Shown here piece after piece: positions 1 to 9,312 of a stretch of 64,000 bases of DNA. The notes under the pieces were generated by a model. The model was not told the origin of the DNA. It was given only the letters and a program-made list of their open reading frames with translations, and did not search any database. This stretch comes from Escherichia coli (GTDB lineage Bacteria; Pseudomonadota; Gammaproteobacteria; Enterobacterales; Enterobacteriaceae): assembly GCF_003019035.1 (NCBI RefSeq), contig NZ_CP027447.1; one strand, given 5' to 3'. The stretch's first letter is position 1, and each line of letters opens with the position of its first letter. A program made the translations under genes and the position numbers.

Positions 1-302
1 CGAAAATAAGCTGAACTGTGGCTGCGCATTCTGGCCACCAGCAAAGGTGGCATTGCCTTTTCGATCGCTGGTAACAACGCCTGAATTTTTTCAACTGCAT
101 CAGGGGTGTCTTTCTCTACCCAGCGGAAAATTTTCTGGGTATTGCGAGCCAGGGCTTCCGGATGGCTGTCGTCATACAGTTCAGGAAACGTCATACCCAA
201 CTCAAAATAAGCCTGGGTTATTCCAGTTGCTGGAACTTTTTCGCCATCAGGACGCGCCCAGGCATTCATCGCCATGCGGATGTGTTCATGCTTGATTTTC
301 AT
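1..302 (-). CDS. YdaT-like prophage protein, N-terminal ~100 codons (gene runs off window)
   Basis: Open minus-strand frame from ATG at 300..302 (MKIKHEHIRMAMNAW...), 17-bp overlap with upstream ydaS-like gene; not in ORF track because no stop in window. Confidence 0.4.
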   Translation of the reverse strand, partial: MKIKHEHIRMAMNAWARPDGEKVPATGITQAYFELGMTFPELYDDSHPEALARNTQKIFRWVEKDTPDAVEKIQALLPAIEKAMPPLLVARMRSHSSAYF

Positions 303-567
303 GAATCAAGCTCCTAGTAAGTGGTTGTGTTAACGTTTTGGTATCTTCCAGCTCGGGCCAAATATTCATCCAATCAAAAGGCCTTAGTTGCTGACGTGTA
401 ACTTCACCATTACTGGCTCGCTCAATAAGGACACATAACGATGCCCCTAACATTTGACCTTTACTCAATGCCTTTCTTAGATAACCGATGCTAGTACCAC
501 ACTCACATGCAAACATACGCTGTTCATCTGACGAAAGAGAATTGAGAAATATTCTTAATTCTTCCAT
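286..567 (-). CDS. YdaS/Cro-like HTH prophage regulator
   Basis: 93-aa ORF divergent from repressor-like gene; small HTH protein ending ...LRPFDW... Confidence 0.5.
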   Translation of the reverse strand: MEELRIFLNSLSSDEQRMFACECGTSIGYLRKALSKGQMLGASLCVLIERASNGEVTRQQLRPFDWMNIWPELEDTKTLTQPLTRSLIHENQA

Positions 568-666
568 AGCTACTCCTTAGTAAACACAGCAAGAATACCT
601 ACAGGTAAACAAAAGTCAATACCCTTGGGTTGTTTACCTTGCGGTAATCGCATCTATTATTTACCT
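568..666. promoter_or_regulatory. Divergent promoter/operator region between repressor-like and ydaS-like genes
   Basis: 10-bp inverted repeat aggtaaacaa / ttgtttacct with 17-bp spacer between divergent starts. Confidence 0.35.
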
Positions 667-1086
667 ATGGACAAATATGAATTTAGACGACAACAACTCA
701 TCAAAATTCGTGATGAGAAATGCGATGGTAAAGCGGTTAACGTGGCCAGAAAGATCGGTCGCGAGCCTTCTTATGTATCAAGAATGTTGTACCCAGAGGG
801 GAAAAAAGGAAAAAAACGGATCGCTGATGATATGGTGGAGATTATAGAAGAGTCCTTTGGGTTACCCCGGGGATGGATGGATGGTATCGTTTCATCATCA
901 ACGAACACAGCCTCCAATTATGAAACAAGGGTTCTAACGCCACGACAACGTATTTTTTTAGATCTCTTAGACGAACTGCCAGAAAGTGAAGCGGATAACT
1001 TATTAAAAACTCTTGAAGAGAAAAAACAGTATTACAATATGATCTACGAAGAAATCCGTAAAAAGAAAGCACAAAACGCATCATAA
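667..1086 (+). CDS. CI/RacR-like prophage repressor (HTH)
   Basis: ORF from internal ATG (MDKYEFRR...); HTH-like segment AVNVARKIGREPSYVSRML; divergent from cro-like gene. Confidence 0.5.
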   Translation: MDKYEFRRQQLIKIRDEKCDGKAVNVARKIGREPSYVSRMLYPEGKKGKKRIADDMVEIIEESFGLPRGWMDGIVSSSTNTASNYETRVLTPRQRIFLDLLDELPESEADNLLKTLEEKKQYYNMIYEEIRKKKAQNAS

Positions 1087-1165: not shown

Positions 1166-1349
1166 ATCCTTCCTTTCATACCAACCCACCCCGTCCCACA
1201 GAACGCAGGGCAATACTTCGAGTTACCAGGCAGTGGTCAGGGGGTAAGTAGCCAGCCCGAGGCGTAAGAACATGACGGCAGGGTTCAACTTTAACTATGC
1301 AGCAGGTTTTTGTTCCGCTACCCCGGCGTTAAGGGGAAATGAGGTCAAC

Positions 1350-1505
1350 ATGGATACTATCGATCTTGGCAACAACGAATCTCTGGTGTACGGCGTGTTT
1401 CCCAACCAGGACGGCACATTCACCGCGATGACGTATACCAAAAGCAAAACGTTTAAAACCGAAAATGGTGCCCGTCGCTGGCTGGAAAGAAACTCAGGTG
1501 AGTGA
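1350..1505 (+). CDS. Small prophage protein (51 aa), ydaF-like
   Basis: Internal ATG of track ORF 1272..1505; MDTIDLGNNESLVYGV...; position in early-left region. Confidence 0.3.
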   Translation: MDTIDLGNNESLVYGVFPNQDGTFTAMTYTKSKTFKTENGARRWLERNSGE

Positions 1506-1506
1506 T

Positions 1507-1635
1507 ATGGATTTCGACACAATCATGGAAAAGGCTTACGAAGAATACTTCGAAGGCCTTGCCGAAGGCGAAGAAGCTCTCAGCTTCAGTGAGTTTAAAC
1601 AGGCGCTTTCCAGCTCGGCAAAATCTAACGGCTGA
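1507..1635 (+). CDS. Small prophage ORF (42 aa), acidic
   Basis: ATG 2 nt after preceding stop; MDFDTIMEKAYEEYFEGLAEGEE...; below ORF-track length cutoff. Confidence 0.3.
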   Translation: MDFDTIMEKAYEEYFEGLAEGEEALSFSEFKQALSSSAKSNG

Positions 1636-1664
1636 TAAGCGAAGCAGCACCGCGAGGAATCAGT

Positions 1665-1883
1665 ATGCAGAAACGAGAACCCGTCATCATCGCGCCAGAC
1701 TATACCGATGATGAACTTTATGAGTGGATGCGCCAGAAAATTAATGCAGCGCAGGATCTGAAATGGGCCAATGAAGCCAGGGCTAAGCAGGCTGAAAATC
1801 TGTCCGCTCTGGAGCAGGATATCACCAGGCTGGAAAAAGCAGCGGCATTAAGCATTGCCAGAATGATTACATACCCGCGTTAA
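1665..1883 (+). CDS. Hypothetical prophage protein (72 aa)
   Basis: ORF with AGGAA-type RBS upstream. Confidence 0.35.
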   Translation: MQKREPVIIAPDYTDDELYEWMRQKINAAQDLKWANEARAKQAENLSALEQDITRLEKAAALSIARMITYPR

Positions 1884-2450
1884 TAGCTAACCAACGAAGC
1901 TAAGGTTGGTAATTAAGGAGTTCTCCACGGGTGAGGTGGAGTGCGTGCGCCGGACACGGGTGAGCATCCGGCACTGACAGTTTACTGAAAGGATATTTCC
2001 ATGAAAAGTCAGACCATAACGCGAAAGCGCACGGCGAGGTAGCTGGTTCATAGATAGCCTGTCGTTAAATTTTCGTCGACCGTGCGCTTCCGGTTGTGGC
2101 ACTCCGCGAAATGGCGCGGCGGTAAGTATGGCGGGGTTATTCCTTCCCCGTTGAGGACACCGGGTTGTCAGGTTGACCATACTCTTAAGTGACACCCCCG
2201 CTGCAACGCCCTCTGTTATCAATTTTCTGGTGACGTTTGGCGGTATCAGTTTTACTCCGTGACTGCTCTGCCGCCCTTTTTAAAGTGAATTTTGTGATGC
2301 GGTGAATGCGGCTAAGCGCACGCGGAACAGTTAAAACCAAAAACAGTGTTATGGGTGGATTCTCTGTATCCGGCGTTAATTGTTAACTGGTTAACGTCAC
2401 CTGGAGGCACAAGGCACCGCATCACAAAACTCATTGTTGAGGGCGCGATA

Positions 2451-2639
2451 ATGAAAACGTTATTACCAAACGTTAATACGTCTGAAGGTTGTTTTGAAAT
2501 TGGTGTCAGAATCAGTAACCCTGTATTTACTGAAGATGCCATTAACAAGAGAAAACACGAACGGGAGCTATTAAATAAAATATGCATTCTTTCAATGCTG
2601 GCCCGTTTACGTCCGACTCAAAAAGGATACTGGCAATGA
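2451..2639 (+). CDS. Hypothetical prophage protein (62 aa)
   Basis: ATG with GAGGG RBS; stop overlaps next start (ATGA). Confidence 0.3.
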   Translation: MKTLLPNVNTSEGCFEIGVRISNPVFTEDAINKRKHERELLNKICILSMLARLRPTQKGYWQ

Positions 2640-2827
2640 ATACCACATTTGAACTTGTTCTGACAGTTTTTCTTGTTTCCGGTGAACCGATTGACATGGT
2701 TACTGGCGTATACGGCTCAATGAAAGAATGCATGGCTGCCGCAGCGGAACAGAAAATTCCCGGTAACTGTTACCAGGTCGATAAAGTTATTCACCAGGAT
2801 AATAACGAAATCCCGGCAGGATTTTAA
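2636..2827 (+). CDS. Hypothetical small hydrophobic prophage protein (63 aa)
   Basis: ATG with AAAGGA RBS; translationally coupled to upstream ORF. Confidence 0.3.
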   Translation: MNTTFELVLTVFLVSGEPIDMVTGVYGSMKECMAAAAEQKIPGNCYQVDKVIHQDNNEIPAGF

Positions 2828-2920
2828 AACAGCACCGTAATAAATATCCAGTTTCATTCTTATATGCCAGCAATGGCAGGGATTTGTTCATCCTTAAATC
2901 TGTCATGAGGTTAAAACAAA

Positions 2921-5392
2921 ATGAGTAAAGTCTTTATTTGCGCCGCTATTCCTGACGAACTGGCAACAAGGGAAGAAGGCGCTGTGGCTGTAGCCACAGC
3001 CATTGAAGCTGGCGACGAACGCCGCGCCCGTGCCAAATTTACCTGGCAATTCCTGGAGCAATATCCGGCTGCTCAGGACTGCGCTTATAAATTTCTTGTC
3101 TGCGAGGATAAACCCGGTATACCCCGCCCTGCCCTCGATTCCTGGGATGCTGAATATATGCAGGAAAACCGCTGGGATGAGGATTCTGCTTCTTTTGTTC
3201 CGGTTGAGAATGAATCCGATCCGATGAACGTCACTTTTGACAAGCTGGCCCCTGAAGTACAGAACGCTGTCATGGTTAAGTTCGACACATGTGAAAACAT
3301 CACCGTTGATATGGTTATTAGCGCACAGGAATTGTTGCAGGAAGACATGGCAACATTCGACGGACATATCGTTGAAGCGTTGATGAAAATGCCAGATGTT
3401 AACGCCATGTATCCGGAGCTTAAGCTGCATGCCATCGGGTGGGTTAAGCATAAATGTAAGCCTGGTGCCAAATGGCCCGAAATTCAGGCAGAGATGAGCA
3501 TCTGGAAAAAACGTCGCGAAGGTGAACGCAAGGAAACCGGAAAATACACGTCTGTTGTTGATCTCGCCCGCGCCAGAGCCAATCAACAGCACACTGAAAA
3601 CTCAGCAGAAAAAATCCCCCCTGTCACTGCAGTCATTCGTCGCGAATACAAGCAGACATGGAAAACACTGGATGATGAACTGGCCTACGCTCTCTGGCCT
3701 GGTGATGTGGATGCCGGAAACATTGACGGCAGCATCCATCGCTGGGCAAAAAATGAAGTTATCGACAACGACCGCGAAGACTGGAAGCGTATCTCGGCAT
3801 CAATGCGCAAACAGCCTGATGCCCTTCGCTACGACCGCCAGACTATTTTTGGCCTTGTTCGTGAACGTCCGATCGACATTCACAAAGACCCTGTGGCACT
3901 GAACAAATACATTACTGAATACCTGACTACAAAGGGCGTGTTTGAAGATGAAGGAAGAAATCAGAGCGCAACTGATACTCTCCCGTCGCCAGTACCAGAA
4001 ACTGATGCAGTGGAAACGGCAATTCTGGACAACGAAAAAACCGAATGCAAAGTGGAAGTCGAACCATCTGTAGAGCGTGAGGGGCCGTTCTACTTACTCT
4101 TCACCGACAAGGATGGCGAAAAATACGGTCGCGCAAACAAACTTTCTGGTCTGGATAAGGCACTGGCTGCCGGGGCTACTGAAATCACGAAAGAAGAATA
4201 TTTCGCCCGCAAAAACGGTACATACTCAGGTTCACAACAAAATACTGGTGCATCTGACACGACCGCACAACCAGGGCCGGTAAAAGTTACCGCTGACGAA
4301 GTAAACAAAATTATGCAGGCAGCCAATATCAGCCAGCCTGACGCCGATGAACTGCTTGCAGTATCACGTGGTGAATTTGTTGCAGGGATTAGCGATCCGA
4401 ATGATCCGAAATGGGTGAAGGGGATTGAAACCCGCGATTCTGTGAACCAGAACCAGCAAGAAACGGAACAGAGCGACCAGAAAGCGGAACAAAACAGCCC
4501 AAATACACAACAAAACGAGCCAGAAACGAAACAACCTGAACCAGTAGTGCAACAGGAACCGGAAAAGATCTGCACCGCCTGCGGTCAGAGCGGTGGCGGC
4601 AACTGCCCTGATTGTGGTGCGGTGATGGGCGACGCAACATACCAGGAAACATTCGATGAAGAGAATCAGGTTGAAGTTCAGGAAAATGATCCCGAGGAAA
4701 TGGAAGGCGCTGAACATCCACACAAGGAGAACCCTGGCGGCAATCAGCATCACGCCAGCGATAATAAAACTGGCGAGGCGACAGATCCCTTAATTAAGGT
4801 GAATGGTCATCATAAGCTCACATCCACCAGCAGAGCGGGGATTCATCTGATGATCGACCTTGAAACCATGGGAAAAAATCCCGATGCCCCGATTATCTCA
4901 ATAGGCGCAATATTTTTCGATCCACAAACCGGAGATATGGGACCGGAATTTAGCAAGACCATCGATCTGGATACTGCTGGCGGAGTCATTGATCGTGACG
5001 TCATTAAATGGTGGCTGAAGCAATCACGTGAGGCGCAGTCTGCCATTATGACCGATGAAATCCCGTTAGATGATGCACTACTGCAATTGCGGGAATTTAT
5101 CGACGAAAACTCCGGTGAATTTTTTGTTCAGGTCTGGGGTAATGGGGCCAACTTCGACAACGTGATTTTACGCCGTTCATACGAACGACAGGGTATCCCC
5201 TGCCCGTGGCGTTACTACAATGATCGCGATGTGCGCACAATTGTTGAACTGGGAAATTCCATTGGCTTTGATGTCAGAATGGCTATTCCATTCGAAGGTG
5301 TACCCCACAATGCACTTGATGATGCACGTCACCAGGCAAAACAAGTTTCAGCAATCTGGCAAAAACTGATCCCGAGTCAGGCTGATTTTTAA
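2921..5392 (+). CDS. Prophage exonuclease (823 aa) with C-terminal DEDDh-type 3'-5' exonuclease domain
   Basis: C-terminal motifs IDLETMG, WGNGANFD, HNALDDA; central CxxC-x9-CxxC zinc-ribbon-like motif; Q/E-rich linker; position upstream of xis-int. Confidence 0.6.
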   Translation: MSKVFICAAIPDELATREEGAVAVATAIEAGDERRARAKFTWQFLEQYPAAQDCAYKFLVCEDKPGIPRPALDSWDAEYMQENRWDEDSASFVPVENESDPMNVTFDKLAPEVQNAVMVKFDTCENITVDMVISAQELLQEDMATFDGHIVEALMKMPDVNAMYPELKLHAIGWVKHKCKPGAKWPEIQAEMSIWKKRREGERKETGKYTSVVDLARARANQQHTENSAEKIPPVTAVIRREYKQTWKTLDDELAYALWPGDVDAGNIDGSIHRWAKNEVIDNDREDWKRISASMRKQPDALRYDRQTIFGLVRERPIDIHKDPVALNKYITEYLTTKGVFEDEGRNQSATDTLPSPVPETDAVETAILDNEKTECKVEVEPSVEREGPFYLLFTDKDGEKYGRANKLSGLDKALAAGATEITKEEYFARKNGTYSGSQQNTGASDTTAQPGPVKVTADEVNKIMQAANISQPDADELLAVSRGEFVAGISDPNDPKWVKGIETRDSVNQNQQETEQSDQKAEQNSPNTQQNEPETKQPEPVVQQEPEKICTACGQSGGGNCPDCGAVMGDATYQETFDEENQVEVQENDPEEMEGAEHPHKENPGGNQHHASDNKTGEATDPLIKVNGHHKLTSTSRAGIHLMIDLETMGKNPDAPIISIGAIFFDPQTGDMGPEFSKTIDLDTAGGVIDRDVIKWWLKQSREAQSAIMTDEIPLDDALLQLREFIDENSGEFFVQVWGNGANFDNVILRRSYERQGIPCPWRYYNDRDVRTIVELGNSIGFDVRMAIPFEGVPHNALDDARHQAKQVSAIWQKLIPSQADF

Positions 5393-5450: not shown

Positions 5451-5654
5451 ATGAGCAGCTTATTTTTAACCGAAGATGAATTGCTAATATTAACGGGCTG
5501 CAAATATGCAAGCCACCAGCGAAAATGGTTAACGGAAAACGGGCTTCCGTTCTATACCAATCGTAGTGGCAAACCGATTGTCAGCCGGGATCTATTTACC
5601 TGCAATAAAACTTTACCACCACGCGAGGTAGAGCCGAATTTTGGTGCGATCTGA
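5451..5654 (+). CDS. Excisionase-like protein (67 aa)
   Basis: Small ORF immediately upstream of and overlapping int (ATGA). Confidence 0.4.
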   Translation: MSSLFLTEDELLILTGCKYASHQRKWLTENGLPFYTNRSGKPIVSRDLFTCNKTLPPREVEPNFGAI

Positions 5655-6679
5655 TGGGAAGACGAAGGAAAAATCCTGAACACGAAAAATTACCTCCAAA
5701 TGTATACCCAAATAAATATAGTTATGTATGGAAACCAACATCCAGAGAATCTGTAACACTAACCGCCATCAAGGATGGTTTAGCTGCTTTATGGAAAAAG
5801 TATGAGGAAACTGTAAATAATCGCGATCGTGCAATGACATTCGGTCGCTTGTGGGAAAAATTCCTCGCCAGCGCCTATTACAGTGACCTCAGTCCAAGAA
5901 CACAAAAAGATTATCTGCAACATCAAAAAAAGTTGCTTGCCGTATTCGGTAAGGTGCCGGCAGATTCCATAAAACCAGAACACATCCGTCGATACATGGA
6001 CAAGAGAGGGGAACAGAGTAAAACGCAAGCCAACCATGAAAAAAGCAGTATGTCCCGCGTTTACAGTTGGGGGTATGAGCGAGGGTACGTGAAGGCTAAC
6101 CCATGTGCAGGTGTAAGTAAATTCAAGGCCAAAAACCGCGAACGATATGTAACCGACAAAGAATACCAGGCAGTATTAAGCGTTGCACCTCTTCCTGTTT
6201 TTATCGCAATGGAAATTGCCTATCTGTGTGCAGCGAGGGTTTCCGATGTGTTATCGCTGAAATGGGAGCAGATTGGAAACGACGGGATCTTTATCCAGCA
6301 AGGGAAAACAGGAAAAAAACAGATAAAAGCATGGAGTCCACGATTACAGGCGGCGATCGAAAAAGCAAAACAGTTACCAACATCCGCCTATGTAATCAGC
6401 AATCAATACGGCAACCGATATATGTACAAAGGCTTTAACGAAATGTGGGTAGAAGCAAGAAATCGCGCAGGCAAAATTTCAGGTATTTTAACCGACTTCA
6501 CCTTTCATGATCTGAAGGCGAAAGGAATTTCAGACTATGAAGGAAGCAGTCGGGATAAGCAACTTTTCTCTGGTCACAAAACCGAGGGGCAAGTGCTAAT
6601 CTATGACAGGAAGGTTAAAGTTTCACCGACACTTGATGTCCCGTTACCTGAAAATATTCCAAGAAAATATTCCAAGTAA
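5654..6679 (+). CDS. int: Phage integrase (tyrosine recombinase)
   Basis: 341-aa ORF ending 53 bp from the tRNA-Ser 3' end; typical lambda-family integrase architecture. Confidence 0.85.
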   Translation: MGRRRKNPEHEKLPPNVYPNKYSYVWKPTSRESVTLTAIKDGLAALWKKYEETVNNRDRAMTFGRLWEKFLASAYYSDLSPRTQKDYLQHQKKLLAVFGKVPADSIKPEHIRRYMDKRGEQSKTQANHEKSSMSRVYSWGYERGYVKANPCAGVSKFKAKNRERYVTDKEYQAVLSVAPLPVFIAMEIAYLCAARVSDVLSLKWEQIGNDGIFIQQGKTGKKQIKAWSPRLQAAIEKAKQLPTSAYVISNQYGNRYMYKGFNEMWVEARNRAGKISGILTDFTFHDLKAKGISDYEGSSRDKQLFSGHKTEGQVLIYDRKVKVSPTLDVPLPENIPRKYSK

Positions 6680-6731: not shown

Positions 6732-6821
6732 TGGCGGAGAGAGGGGGATTTGAACCCCCGGTGGAGTTGCCCCCACTCCGGTTTTCGAGACCGGTCCGTT
6801 CAGCCGCTCCGGCATCTCTCC
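6732..6821 (-). tRNA. serU: tRNA-Ser (anticodon CGA)
   Basis: 90-nt tRNA with long variable arm; reverse complement reads GGAGAGATGCCGGAGCGG...GGTCTCGAAAACC...CTCTCCGCCA. Confidence 0.9.
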
Positions 6822-7812: not shown

Positions 7813-7888
7813 TCCTCTGTAGTTCAGTCGGTAGAACGGCGGACTGTTAATCCGTATGTCACTGGTTCGAGTCCAGTCAGAGGAGCCA
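7813..7888 (+). tRNA. asnT: tRNA-Asn (anticodon GUU)
   Basis: 76-nt tRNA TCCTCTGTAGTTCAGTCGGTAGAACGGCGGACTGTTAATCCG...GGAGCCA; identical copies at 33015, 34839, 37247. Confidence 0.95.
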
Positions 7889-8049
7889 AATTCAAGTTTT
7901 CATGCTTATCCATACGTCTCTATATGTTTACGATTCAGTAAGTTAGCGTGAAAATCCTTCCCGATGCGTATCTGGTTTTCTCTCCGCATCGGGATAATTT
8001 GGTGGTCAGATCTGGGGTCAGTTTGGTTCGATTCTGGAGTGACCCCCAA

Positions 8050-9312
8050 ATGTCTTTAAACGATTCTAAAATCCGCACGTTAAAACCTTCTTCCCGTCCG
8101 GTAAAACTCTCCGACTCTCACGGTCTGTATCTGCTCGTCAATCCGGGCGGTTCACGCATCTGGTATCTCAAATATCGTTTCAACGGAAAAGAATCCAGAG
8201 TCAGTCTTGGCGCATACCCGCTGGTCTCACTGGCAGAAGCCAGGCAGCAGCGCGACGGTATCCGTAAGCTGCTGGCGCAGAATATCAACCCGGCGCAACA
8301 GCGCATGGCAGAGAAAACTGCCTGCTCTCCTGAAAAGTGCTTTAAGGCGGTGGCGCTGGCCTGGCACAAAACCAACAAAAAATGGTCGGCTGATTATGCT
8401 GCACGTATTCTCGCCAGCATGGAAAATCATATCTTCCCGGCGATTGGTCATCTGCCCGTTGCCACTCTTAAAACGCAGGATTTCACTGCTTTGTTGCGGG
8501 TTATCGAGGATAAAGGCTTTCTGGAAGTCGCGTCCCGAACACGGCAGCAACTCAGCAACATCATGCGCTATGCCGTTCAGCAGGGACTTACCGACAGTAA
8601 CCCAGCGCAGCATCTGGATGGCGTTGTCGCCTCCCCCGTAAAAAATCACTACCCCGCTTTACCGCTGGAGCGATTGCCTGAACTGCTTGACCGCATTGGC
8701 GACTACCGGCAGGGCCGGGAGTTAACCCGGCTGGCGGTGGTGCTGACGCTGCACCTGTTCATCCGCTCCAGCGAACTGCGTTTCGCCCGCTGGAGCGAGA
8801 TCGATTTCAGGCACAAAATCTGGACCATCCCCGCCACCCGCGAAGCCATCGACAAAGTACGGTTTTCCGATCGTGGCGCCAAAATGCGTAGTCCGCATAT
8901 CGTGCCGCTCTCCCGCCAGGCCATTGCCATTCTGAAACAGATACAGGAACTTTCCGGTCATCTGGATCTGGTGTTTCCCGGTGATCATAACCCGTACAAG
9001 CCAATGAGTGAAAACACCACCAACCGGGCGCTGCGCCTGATGGGGTATGATACGAAAACTGAAATCTGCGGACATGGACTCAGGGCGATGGCCTGTAGCG
9101 CCCTGGTGGAGTCAGATCTCTGGTCACGCGATACGGTGGAGCGGCAAATGAGCCACCAGGAGCGCAACAGCGTGCGTGCGGCATATGTGCATAAGGCGGA
9201 GCATCTGGAGGCCAGAAAAGCCATGATGCAGTGGTGGTCGGATTATCTGGATGTGTGCCGTGAGGGGTATATTGCGCCGTATATTTATGCCCGGCAGCAT
9301 AAGGCGGCCTGA
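8050..9312 (+). CDS. int: P4-type integrase (tyrosine recombinase, ~420 aa)
   Basis: Start MSLNDSKIRTLK...; C-terminal catalytic region with ...GHGLRAM... and terminal tyrosine segment; adjacent to tRNA-Asn. Confidence 0.85.
   Translation: MSLNDSKIRTLKPSSRPVKLSDSHGLYLLVNPGGSRIWYLKYRFNGKESRVSLGAYPLVSLAEARQQRDGIRKLLAQNINPAQQRMAEKTACSPEKCFKAVALAWHKTNKKWSADYAARILASMENHIFPAIGHLPVATLKTQDFTALLRVIEDKGFLEVASRTRQQLSNIMRYAVQQGLTDSNPAQHLDGVVASPVKNHYPALPLERLPELLDRIGDYRQGRELTRLAVVLTLHLFIRSSELRFARWSEIDFRHKIWTIPATREAIDKVRFSDRGAKMRSPHIVPLSRQAIAILKQIQELSGHLDLVFPGDHNPYKPMSENTTNRALRLMGYDTKTEICGHGLRAMACSALVESDLWSRDTVERQMSHQERNSVRAAYVHKAEHLEARKAMMQWWSDYLDVCREGYIAPYIYARQHKAA

Follow-up and report, generated by a model that had tools for sequence, protein, structure and literature searches.

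A probable lambdoid immunity region with a YdaT-family CII equivalent in an Escherichia coli prophage

We analysed a 64,000-nucleotide stretch of Escherichia coli DNA (hereafter, the window) and propose with high confidence that positions 1–1200 are the lysis/lysogeny immunity region of a lambdoid prophage, with no dedicated toxin module. A repressor gene and a cro-like gene diverge from a predicted three-site operator (sites starting at 596, 620 and 635) that overlaps two promoter-like matches, and a second operator set (1130 and 1155) lies downstream of the repressor gene at a putative pL-type promoter. The prophage is lambdoid, belongs to the Qin/Rac/CP-933 mosaic family, and is inserted at tRNA-Ser beside mtfA.

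Results

Gene organization

The repressor gene (plus strand, 667–1086 from the ATG to the end of the stop codon) encodes 139 aa and is divergent from a 93-aa Cro-like HTH gene (286–567, minus strand), which is preceded by an AAGGAG ribosome-binding site. The cro-like gene is the first in its operon and lies directly upstream of a YdaT-family gene on the same strand (1–302, start codon at 300–302). The latter is open to base 1, where the window truncates it, so that the 5' part with 100 of approximately 141 codons is present. The cro-like stop region and the ydaT start have 17 bp in common (286–302). This arrangement agrees with a preliminary description of this DNA, which had reported a repressor-like gene divergent from a cro-like HTH gene with a 17-bp overlap between the latter and ydaT. 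All three ORFs are intact as far as the window shows, and full-length proteins of nearly the same sequence have annotations in hundreds of E. coli genomes, indicating genuine genes and not chance ORFs.

The same description had placed the module at the prophage edge; it is at the edge of the window only. The prophage continues leftward past the window start, and it ends approximately 5.6 kb to the right of the module at the integrase gene (5654–6679) and tRNA-Ser (6732–6821). In relatives, the replication, Q, lysis and head genes are located left of the module, and the dicB–exonuclease–xis–int arm is on the other side. The window's integrase gene is intact, with an ORF of 341 aa; some relatives carry a frameshifted integrase.

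Repressor protein

Residues 1–74 of the repressor form an XRE-like HTH domain common to S24-type CI repressors. This segment is 85% identical to a Salmonella S24/LexA-family repressor, and the DNA-binding domain is 65% identical to that of the annotated cI of the sequenced phage mEp043. A disordered linker (residues 76–87) leads to a DicA-like helical hairpin (residues ~88–138). The tail matched NCBIfam PRK09706 over residues 84–136 with an E value of 2.5e-5, under the family cutoff, and BLASTP against DicA gave 1e-7; no sequence similarity between the repressor N-terminus and DicA was detected by BLASTP. The S24 peptidase domain (PF00717), which relatives with the same DNA-binding domain carry, is absent from the 139-aa protein. 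Because a DicA-type tail replaces the S24 autopeptidase domain, RecA activation probably does not lead to cleavage of the repressor, and its sequence would group it with the non-cleavable repressors of the DicA/Gifsy/SPC32H type.

The AF2 model of the repressor had a pLDDT of 86. Foldseek matched this model to XRE-type HTH proteins and to the SPC32H Rep-Ant complex 5D50, all weakly (best E 1.4e-3, to the SPC32H complex); these matches support the predicted XRE-type HTH fold and nothing more specific. The protein also matched PHROG 5736 (E 5e-70). Identity as a RacR homologue was ruled out: the best BLASTP alignment to K-12 RacR had an E value of 2.3, and there was no Pfam match. The repressor is thus a positional analogue only, RacR being found in its slot in the RacR-type prophage (L010).

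Predicted operators and promoters

Four exact matches to TACC-N4-GGTA were found in the window, all of them in OR or OL (expected, 0.4; four or more in 0 of 100 shuffles). Predicted operator OR-a, TACCTACAGGTA (596–607), is an exact match in the spacer and -10 element of the pR-like promoter, and its position is conserved in Salmonella and mEp043. Predicted operator OR-b, TACCCTTGGGTT (620–631), has one mismatch, lies between two -35 elements, and forms a repeat (D5/I11) with an OL site; the conserved block aligned across loci is CAATACCC. Predicted operator OR-c, TACCTTGCGGTA (635–646), overlaps the -35 element of the pRM-like promoter. The OL pair (1130–1166), consisting of TACCCACGGGTA (1130–1141) and TACCCGTGGGTA (1155–1166) spaced 25 bp apart, forms a perfect 16-bp inverted repeat that flanks or overlaps the pL-like promoter. 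Salmonella and mEp043 have both OL sites at conserved positions, with TATATT as the -10 element. In Salmonella, Klebsiella and mEp043, TACC-N4-GGTA sites occupy the same two places next to repressors that have this DNA-binding domain; none was found in the Rac, Qin, RacR-type or Tritos loci. The hairpin at 1130–1166 has a z score of -6.4. It could be read as a terminator, but its plus-strand U-tract is poor and its arms fit better as conserved operators.

A consensus scan of positions 1–1400 returned only a divergent pair of promoter-like matches, both overlapping the operators: a putative pR-like promoter for the cro-like/ydaT operon (TTGACT-16-TATTCT, 592–619, minus strand, 9 of 12) and a putative pRM-like promoter for the repressor gene (TTTACC-16-TATTAT, 633–660, plus strand). 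Their number was no higher than that in shuffles (2 vs a mean of 2.3); it is the placement alone, and not the number, that is suggestive. The putative pL-like promoter (-35 TTTACT at 1142–1147, -10 TATCCT at 1165–1170) agrees with the consensus at 8 of 12 positions, below the scan threshold. There is no Shine–Dalgarno sequence ahead of the repressor ATG; a pRM start approximately 6–8 nt past the promoter would fall at this ATG (667) and yield a leaderless repressor mRNA, as is the case for the paaR2 and lambda cI mRNAs (PMC8630535). A search of the plus strand near and downstream of the YdaT box for a PRE-like reverse promoter gave no convincing -35/-10 pair. From these patterns, we infer protein binding at the operators and the box, as well as promoter activity, at this locus.

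Cro-like and YdaT-family proteins

The preliminary description had called the region a RacR/YdaS/YdaT-like module and had proposed profile searches against the YdaS and YdaT families. The gene order and the YdaT assignment stood: the 100-aa ydaT fragment scored 38.9 bits against Pfam YdaT_toxin (PF06254; cutoff 21), which refutes an absence of significant similarity for YdaT. The RacR part failed, as described above, and the YdaS part was borne out only as a weak relationship. The Cro-like protein reached 25.9 bits against Pfam YdaS (PF15943), under the cutoff of 30, with a similarity that is weak and nevertheless significant (E 8.9e-6), and BLASTP aligned it to K-12 YdaS with 39% identity over 44 aa (E 9e-7). 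Its PDB relatives are the 'Cro' chains 8C7K/8CO2 (E 1.5e-10 over ~70 residues), and it matched PHROG 35 (E 2e-23). On this sequence evidence, the protein is a homologous HTH protein and a distant YdaS relative, not a clear member of the YdaS family.

A full-length relative of the YdaT fragment is approximately 95% identical to PDB 3C4R, 85% identical to CP-933P YdaT (PDB 8BT1; E 4e-79), and 33% identical to K-12 (Rac) YdaT. The protein matched PHROG 163, 'CII-like transcriptional activator' (E 3e-45). The C-terminal alpha-6 helix, which forms the tetramer, is found in near-identical relatives; residues after 100 lie beyond the window. The R-W pair of the recognition helix is kept here, and so is the DNA box. 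This YdaT box, TTGATTTTCATGAATCAA (292–309), covers the start codon of ydaT as well as the end of the cro-like ORF and is the sole exact match to TTGATT-N6-AATCAA within the 64 kb. The same motif is the footprinted site of CP-933P YdaT (PMC9986795). The Rac box, ATGATTCATGAAAATCAA (PMC11879457), differs from it by 1 base. The box is kept in loci L001 and L003 and in Rac, and its position at the cro/ydaT junction is as in Rac and CP-933P. The sequenced phage Tritos carries the same ydaT in the cII position, adjoining replication genes.

An exchangeable cassette

Homology breakpoints delimit an exchangeable immunity cassette at 309–1176, comprising the cro-like gene, OR, the repressor gene and OL. 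A RacR-type prophage inserted at the same tRNA-Ser/mtfA site is homologous up to 308 and again from 1177, and phage Tritos has only 1–314, 970–1086 and 1184–3000 in common with the window. The cassette boundaries coincide with the YdaT box and the predicted pL start. The intact cassette was present in 821 of 5426 complete E. coli genomes (15%), mostly as a single copy; 695 of the 821 genome copies were at least 99% identical, and the operators and the YdaT box were conserved to the base over divergent hosts. A megablast search of the cassette against sequenced phages matched nothing, and its relatives came from the protein search only. Our literature search on the mEp043 repressor or its operators found nothing relevant.

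The pL arm

Downstream of OL lies an operon (1350–2827, plus strand) that is presumably controlled by the repressor. It consists of a ydfA-like DUF1391 gene (1350–1505, Pfam match), ydfB/ydfC-like ORFs, the DicF sRNA (2225–2276; Rfam DicF, 76.7 bits), dicB (2448–2639; Pfam DicB, 123 bits), and a ydfD-like DUF1482 gene ending at 2827 (Pfam match), all on the plus strand. Positions 1312–3000 are 95% identical at the DNA level to Qin of K-12.

Discussion

Proposed switch

In the proposed switch, the repressor would take the role of CI and bind the 12-bp TACC-N4-GGTA palindromes, three at OR and two at OL. Occupancy of these operators would turn off the leftward pR-like promoter (the cro-like gene, then ydaT, then the replication genes) and the rightward pL-like promoter (ydfABC–dicF–dicB, exonuclease, xis and int), while the pRM-like promoter would supply the leaderless repressor message. 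The Cro-like protein would act as a counter-repressor at the same operators. YdaT, as the CII equivalent, would bind the box that lies in the cro/ydaT overlap and turn on a PRE-like promoter in the reverse direction, thereby raising the repressor level. Inactivation of the repressor, if it occurs, may proceed through an antirepressor or bistable switching, as for DicA. The same switch logic has been established for CP-933P (PMC8630535, PMC9986795), Rac (PMC11879457) and Qin (PMC10448788).

The closest characterised counterpart is the CP-933P immunity region of E. coli O157:H7 (paaR2/ydaS/ydaT; Jurenas 2021, Prolic-Kalinsek 2023), which has an identical box at the ydaS/ydaT junction. Both regions have a divergent repressor and Cro-like gene with an intergenic region of approximately 100 bp, a Cro-type partner, and a predicted leaderless repressor mRNA. 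However, the repressor here is not PaaR2, no paaA2–parE2 toxin–antitoxin pair follows it, the operators differ, and the Cro-like protein is only moderately similar to the PDB Cro chains.

Qin (K-12 dicA–dicC–ydfX with dicBF) resembles the region in its repressor tail, DicA and the repressor both being short and free of an S24 domain, in the 17-bp dicC/ydfX overlap, and in the ydfABC–dicF–dicB–ydfD arm. It differs in that the DNA-binding domain of the repressor is not that of DicA, TACC-N4-GGTA sites are missing, the Cro-like protein is a protein other than DicC (E 0.04), and ydfX is a truncated relative of YdaT whose box is degenerate.

Rac (K-12 racR–ydaS–ydaT) has the same gene order, a YdaT of the same family, a weakly similar YdaS HTH region, and a nearly identical box on the ydaT start codon, whereas its ydaS and ydaT do not overlap and RacR is unrelated to the repressor here. 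At the same att site, prophages that are otherwise homologous carry either the RacR-type cassette or the present one as alternative alleles. The S24-type CI repressors of mEp043 and Salmonella have a DNA-binding domain at the N-terminus that is 65–85% identical to that of the repressor and the same operator layout of TACC-N4-GGTA sites, three in OR and two in OL. In contrast, they possess an S24 autopeptidase domain, which presumably makes them SOS-cleavable, and their cro and cII genes differ from those here.

Alternative explanations

The preliminary description had read the region as a toxic module, in which the repressor mainly silences toxic YdaS and YdaT and is essential for this reason. 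We consider this improbable. The Rac gene racR is essential, and ydaS–ydaT expression rises when it is depleted (PMC5700373, PMC5700377); Rac YdaT expression causes filamentation and death (PMC11879457); the gene order is identical here, and with the R-W pair and the box both kept, off-target binding of YdaT to host DNA is conceivable. However, the toxicity was shown for Rac YdaT, and the YdaT here is far closer to CP-933P YdaT than to Rac YdaT. CP-933P YdaS and YdaT are Cro and CII equivalents and not a toxin–antitoxin pair, that view having been examined and rejected (PMC8630535, PMC9986795; Jobling, PMC5917428), and toxicity tests of CP-933P YdaT were negative (PMC8630535). The Pfam toxin and antitoxin names of YdaT and YdaS are historical (PMC5917428). 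The toxic-module claim is therefore contradicted by the work on the closest characterised relative, and the unrelatedness of the repressor to RacR, the location of ydaT at the cII position of Tritos, and a stronger source of toxicity on the other arm, dicF/dicB, all speak against it as well.

That other arm offers a different route to essentiality, which is compatible with the lambdoid switch and refines its consequence. Loss of the repressor would derepress ydfABC–dicF–dicB, blocking division, together with the pR operon (replication, Q and lysis), so that the repressor would be conditionally essential and DicA-like in function. We regard the chances of this as roughly even. DicF and dicB lie downstream of the OL/pL-like site in an arm nearly identical to that of Qin, the DicA tail is common to the repressor, DicA represses dicBp with derepressed dicBF+ cells apparently unable to form colonies (PMC10448788), and transposon screens score dicA as essential (PMC11481867). 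On the other side, frameshifted A8 (instead of A7) repressor alleles are recorded in genomes whose cro, ydaT and dicB genes are intact. They may be homopolymer sequencing errors and carry no weight as an argument against essentiality; the 60 best RefSeq complete-genome matches included no A8 allele. In the EC958 TraDIS tables (PMC3789825), no EC958_22xx-tagged essential gene is among the entries listed, which is suggestive at most with a tag range that is estimated for this locus. It is plausible that host viability depends on the repressor, and the harm from its loss would probably arise chiefly through DicF/DicB and the lytic genes; ydfABC–dicF–dicB is a better-supported route to such dependence than ydaS/ydaT.

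A decayed, non-functional remnant that persists only through drift is the least probable of the explanations weighed here. Many prophages of the family are cryptic (Qin, Rac and CP-933P), frameshifted integrases occur, and the late genes are not within the window. Nevertheless, the three ORFs and the integrase ORF are intact, the operators and the box agree base for base between divergent hosts, most cassette copies are near-identical, and the switches of the cryptic Qin and CP-933P prophages still work (PMC10448788, PMC8630535).

Implications

A further, speculative reading, which we consider improbable, is that the repressor arose by a natural domain swap that joined the operator-recognition domain of an SOS-cleavable S24 CI family (mEp043 and Salmonella type) to a non-cleavable tail of the DicA type. 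If both forms bind the same TACC-N4-GGTA operators, the prophage would provide SOS-proof protection from phages belonging to that immunity group, and the repressor could keep a co-resident S24-type prophage silent during DNA damage. The tail common to DicA, Tritos CI and the repressor would then be a docking module for a lineage-specific antirepressor, and the A6-GG-A7 tract in the repressor gene could also make repressor expression phase-variable.

Our result is mainly a correction of labels and does not raise a new biological question. Genes that carry the labels 'toxin YdaT family protein' or 'hypothetical protein' in approximately 15% of the complete E. coli genomes, ST131, O145 and O55:H7 strains among them, very likely belong to a standard lambdoid switch, and the 'hypothetical protein' can be annotated as a prophage repressor with a predicted operator sequence. 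A repressor without an autocleavage domain, located directly upstream of dicF/dicB, may aid in interpreting strain-specific essential genes in transposon screens, and the same two traits may help to predict prophage inducibility and to design prophage deletions.

Results

Gene content and prophage setting

The three genes that the preliminary description had placed in the module are real and lie within window positions 1–1086. On the minus strand, the YdaT-family gene starts at the ATG at 300–302 and runs past window base 1, leaving 100 of ~141 translated codons in the window. The 93-aa Cro-like gene (286–567, minus strand; AAGGAG ribosome-binding site) overlaps it by exactly 17 bp (286–302), as had been described, and the ORF of the 139-aa repressor (667–1086, plus strand) is divergent from the Cro-like gene. 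Using megablast, we found E. coli chromosomes that match a 1.3-kb module stretch at >99% identity, with the labels "toxin YdaT family protein", "transcriptional regulator" and "hypothetical protein".

In related genomes, genes for replication proteins, HokD, RusA, Q, lysis, terminase and portal lie to the left of ydaT. To the right of the module, the window contains ydfA/B/C-like genes, followed in the pL arm by the DicF sRNA (2225–2276; Rfam 76.7 bits) and dicB (2448–2639), then a DUF1482 gene, an 823-aa exonuclease, a DUF4224 excisionase-like gene, an intact integrase (5654–6679) and tRNA-Ser (6732–6821), which adjoins mtfA in relatives. These neighbors on both sides identify the module as a central immunity region, that of a lambdoid prophage whose int-proximal end is ~5.6 kb away; the edge at which it had been placed is that of the window only. 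The "exonuclease" (2921–5392) occupies the RecE position; at its C terminus lies an Rv2179c-like 3'-5' exoribonuclease domain (Pfam 220 bits), which is not RecE-type. Beyond the prophage, a second integrase-like ORF (454 aa, 7948–9312) directly follows tRNA-Asn (7813–7888), suggesting that another integrated island adjoins the prophage. Further on are two very large ORFs of 1259 aa and 2685 aa (13643–17422 and 18950–27007), whose syntenic region in strain NDM1 encodes an RHS core protein and the YeeJ adhesin.

YdaT, its box and the Cro-like protein

The YdaT fragment scored 38.9 bits against a Pfam cutoff of 21, whereas the Cro-like protein scored 25.9 bits against Pfam YdaS (E 8.9e-6), under the cutoff of 30. 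Thus, the YdaT assignment stands and the YdaS profile match falls short. The assignment as Cro-like holds, with matches to PDB chains titled "Cro" (E 1.5e-10) and to PHROG 35 (E 2e-23); it is a distant YdaS relative (BLASTP to K-12 YdaS, E 9e-7 over 44 aa). The full-length YdaT of a 99.6%-identical relative shows ~95% identity to PDB 3C4R and 85% to 8BT1, the YdaT of prophage CP-933P, but only 33% to K-12 Rac YdaT. The CP-933P protein, a DNA-binding tetramer, is equivalent in function to lambda CII: its footprint covers a TTGATT-N6-AATCAA repeat where ydaS meets ydaT, and it switches on a PRE-like promoter. No toxicity was seen for it (PMC9986795, PMC8630535).

The sole exact TTGATT-N6-AATCAA match in the 64-kb window (292–309; TTGATTCATGAAAATCAA on the coding strand) lies over the 17-bp overlap and the ydaT start codon, marking the overlap as a putative CII-type operator. 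The Rac YdaT-box, ATGATTCATGAAAATCAA, differs from it by one base and is needed for YdaT-dependent activation of the reverse promoter feeding racR (PMC11879457). In Qin of K-12, dicC and ydfX likewise overlap by 17 bp (1121–1137 of locus L004); the product of ydfX is a YdaT relative truncated to 96 aa (38% identity, E 8e-9), and the box is degenerate (TTGAACAATGAAAATCAC). Phage Tritos (locus L012, 1164–1589) encodes a YdaT nearly identical to that of the window, and its label, "Rha family transcriptional regulator", is probably a misannotation.

The repressor

No similarity to RacR and no Pfam domain were found in the repressor; hence, the proposed RacR homology was not borne out. Over residues 1–74, it shares 85% identity with the N-terminal domain of LexA-family (S24) repressors, 221 aa long, from Salmonella prophages; identity of this domain to the cI annotated in phage mEp043 is 65%. 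Residues 84–136 resemble the DicA C-terminal tail (NCBIfam E 2.5e-5; BLASTP E 1e-7). At the DNA level, the tail is 76% identical to that of Tritos CI, which has another DNA-binding domain. In the AF2 model (pLDDT 86), the HTH domain is helical, residues 76–87 form a disordered linker, and a helical hairpin follows; with this model, Foldseek retrieved HTH proteins of the XRE type and, as a weak hit, the complex of the non-cleavable SPC32H phage Rep with its antirepressor. In alignment, one DNA-binding domain is common to two architectures: a short form with the DicA-like tail (E. coli, Salmonella, Serratia, Yersinia) and a long form with an S24 peptidase domain. The repressor is an unannotated chimera of known modules.

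The repressor gene also contains an A6-GG-A7 homopolymer tract (802–816) encoding the KKGKK loop of the DNA-binding domain. Other assemblies (L013–L015; protein clusters P0009, P0013, P0015, P0016 and P0019) have A8 alleles, which carry a +1 frameshift, with cro, ydaT and dicB intact; none was seen in the 60 best RefSeq complete genomes. A8 represents either a true allele that is rare or phase-variable, or an error in sequencing the homopolymer.

Operators, promoters and the exchangeable cassette

The window contains four exact TACC-N4-GGTA palindromes, all of them in the module, two in the intergenic OR (596 and 635) and two in OL, just after the repressor gene (1130 and 1155); 0.4 were expected, and at least four occurred in 0/100 shuffles. 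A one-mismatch copy lies at 620. Every examined repressor with the same DNA-binding domain (Salmonella L005–L007, Klebsiella L008–L009 and phage mEp043) has the motif at both equivalent locations, and the alignments keep the sites while the flanks have diverged. The motif is absent at the Rac, Qin, RacR-type and Tritos loci.

Only two promoter-like matches occur in 1–1400, a divergent pair overlapping the predicted operators: a predicted pR-like promoter on the minus strand toward the Cro-like gene (TTGACT-16-TATTCT), and a predicted plus-strand repressor-gene promoter (TTTACC-16-TATTAT). The latter ends 6 nt before the repressor ATG, so a leaderless mRNA is predicted; leaderless starts have been shown for lambda cI and paaR2 mRNAs (PMC8630535). 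A weaker, putative pL-like promoter (TTTACT-17-TATCCT, 1142–1170) lies within the OL pair. The two OL operators are also perfect inverted repeats of each other over 16 bp, around a 5-nt loop (1130–1166; RNA fold -25.9 kcal/mol, z = -6.4). On the minus strand a T7 run comes next, so the pair could double as a terminator shielding the repressor gene from antisense transcription.

Homology to a RacR-carrying prophage at the same tRNA-Ser/mtfA site covers 5–308 and 1177–3000 only; that to Tritos, 1–314, 970–1086 and 1184–3000; and that to Qin of K-12 (dicBF operon), 1312–3000 at 95% identity. By these breakpoints, 309–1176 (Cro-like gene, OR, repressor and OL) is an exchangeable immunity cassette. 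Its limits are the YdaT box at one end and the predicted pL start at the other, and RacR-type and window-type cassettes are alternative alleles. The Qin-like dicF/dicB arm is also present in Tritos, a sequenced phage.

Discussion

As the best-supported reading, we largely infer that the module would act as a CI/Cro/CII-type bistable switch. The repressor at OR and OL would silence pR (Cro-like gene, ydaT and replication genes) and pL (ydfABC-dicF-dicB, exonuclease, xis and int), the Cro-like protein would work against it, and YdaT at 292–309 would raise repressor synthesis via a reverse promoter. Because the repressor is without an S24 domain, induction is probably RecA-independent at the repressor level. 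The same holds for DicA, whose repression is lifted by the antirepressor Rem or through spontaneous switching (PMC10448788).

The Rac precedent invoked in the preliminary description is real (PMC5700373, PMC5700377, PMC11879457). However, the reading as a toxic module was not upheld, as the YdaT here is of the CP-933P clade, reported to be non-toxic, and the repressor is unrelated to RacR. Repressor loss is nevertheless probably harmful, because the gene is directly upstream of a Qin-type dicF/dicB operon, the derepression of which blocks division (dicA scored essential in transposon screens; PMC10448788, PMC11481867), and because the lytic arm would also be derepressed. The cassette was present in 821/5426 complete E. 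coli genomes, nearly always as a single copy, including EC958/JJ1886 (ST131), O145:H28 and O55:H7 strains. The locus is an ordinary, widespread lambdoid immunity region.
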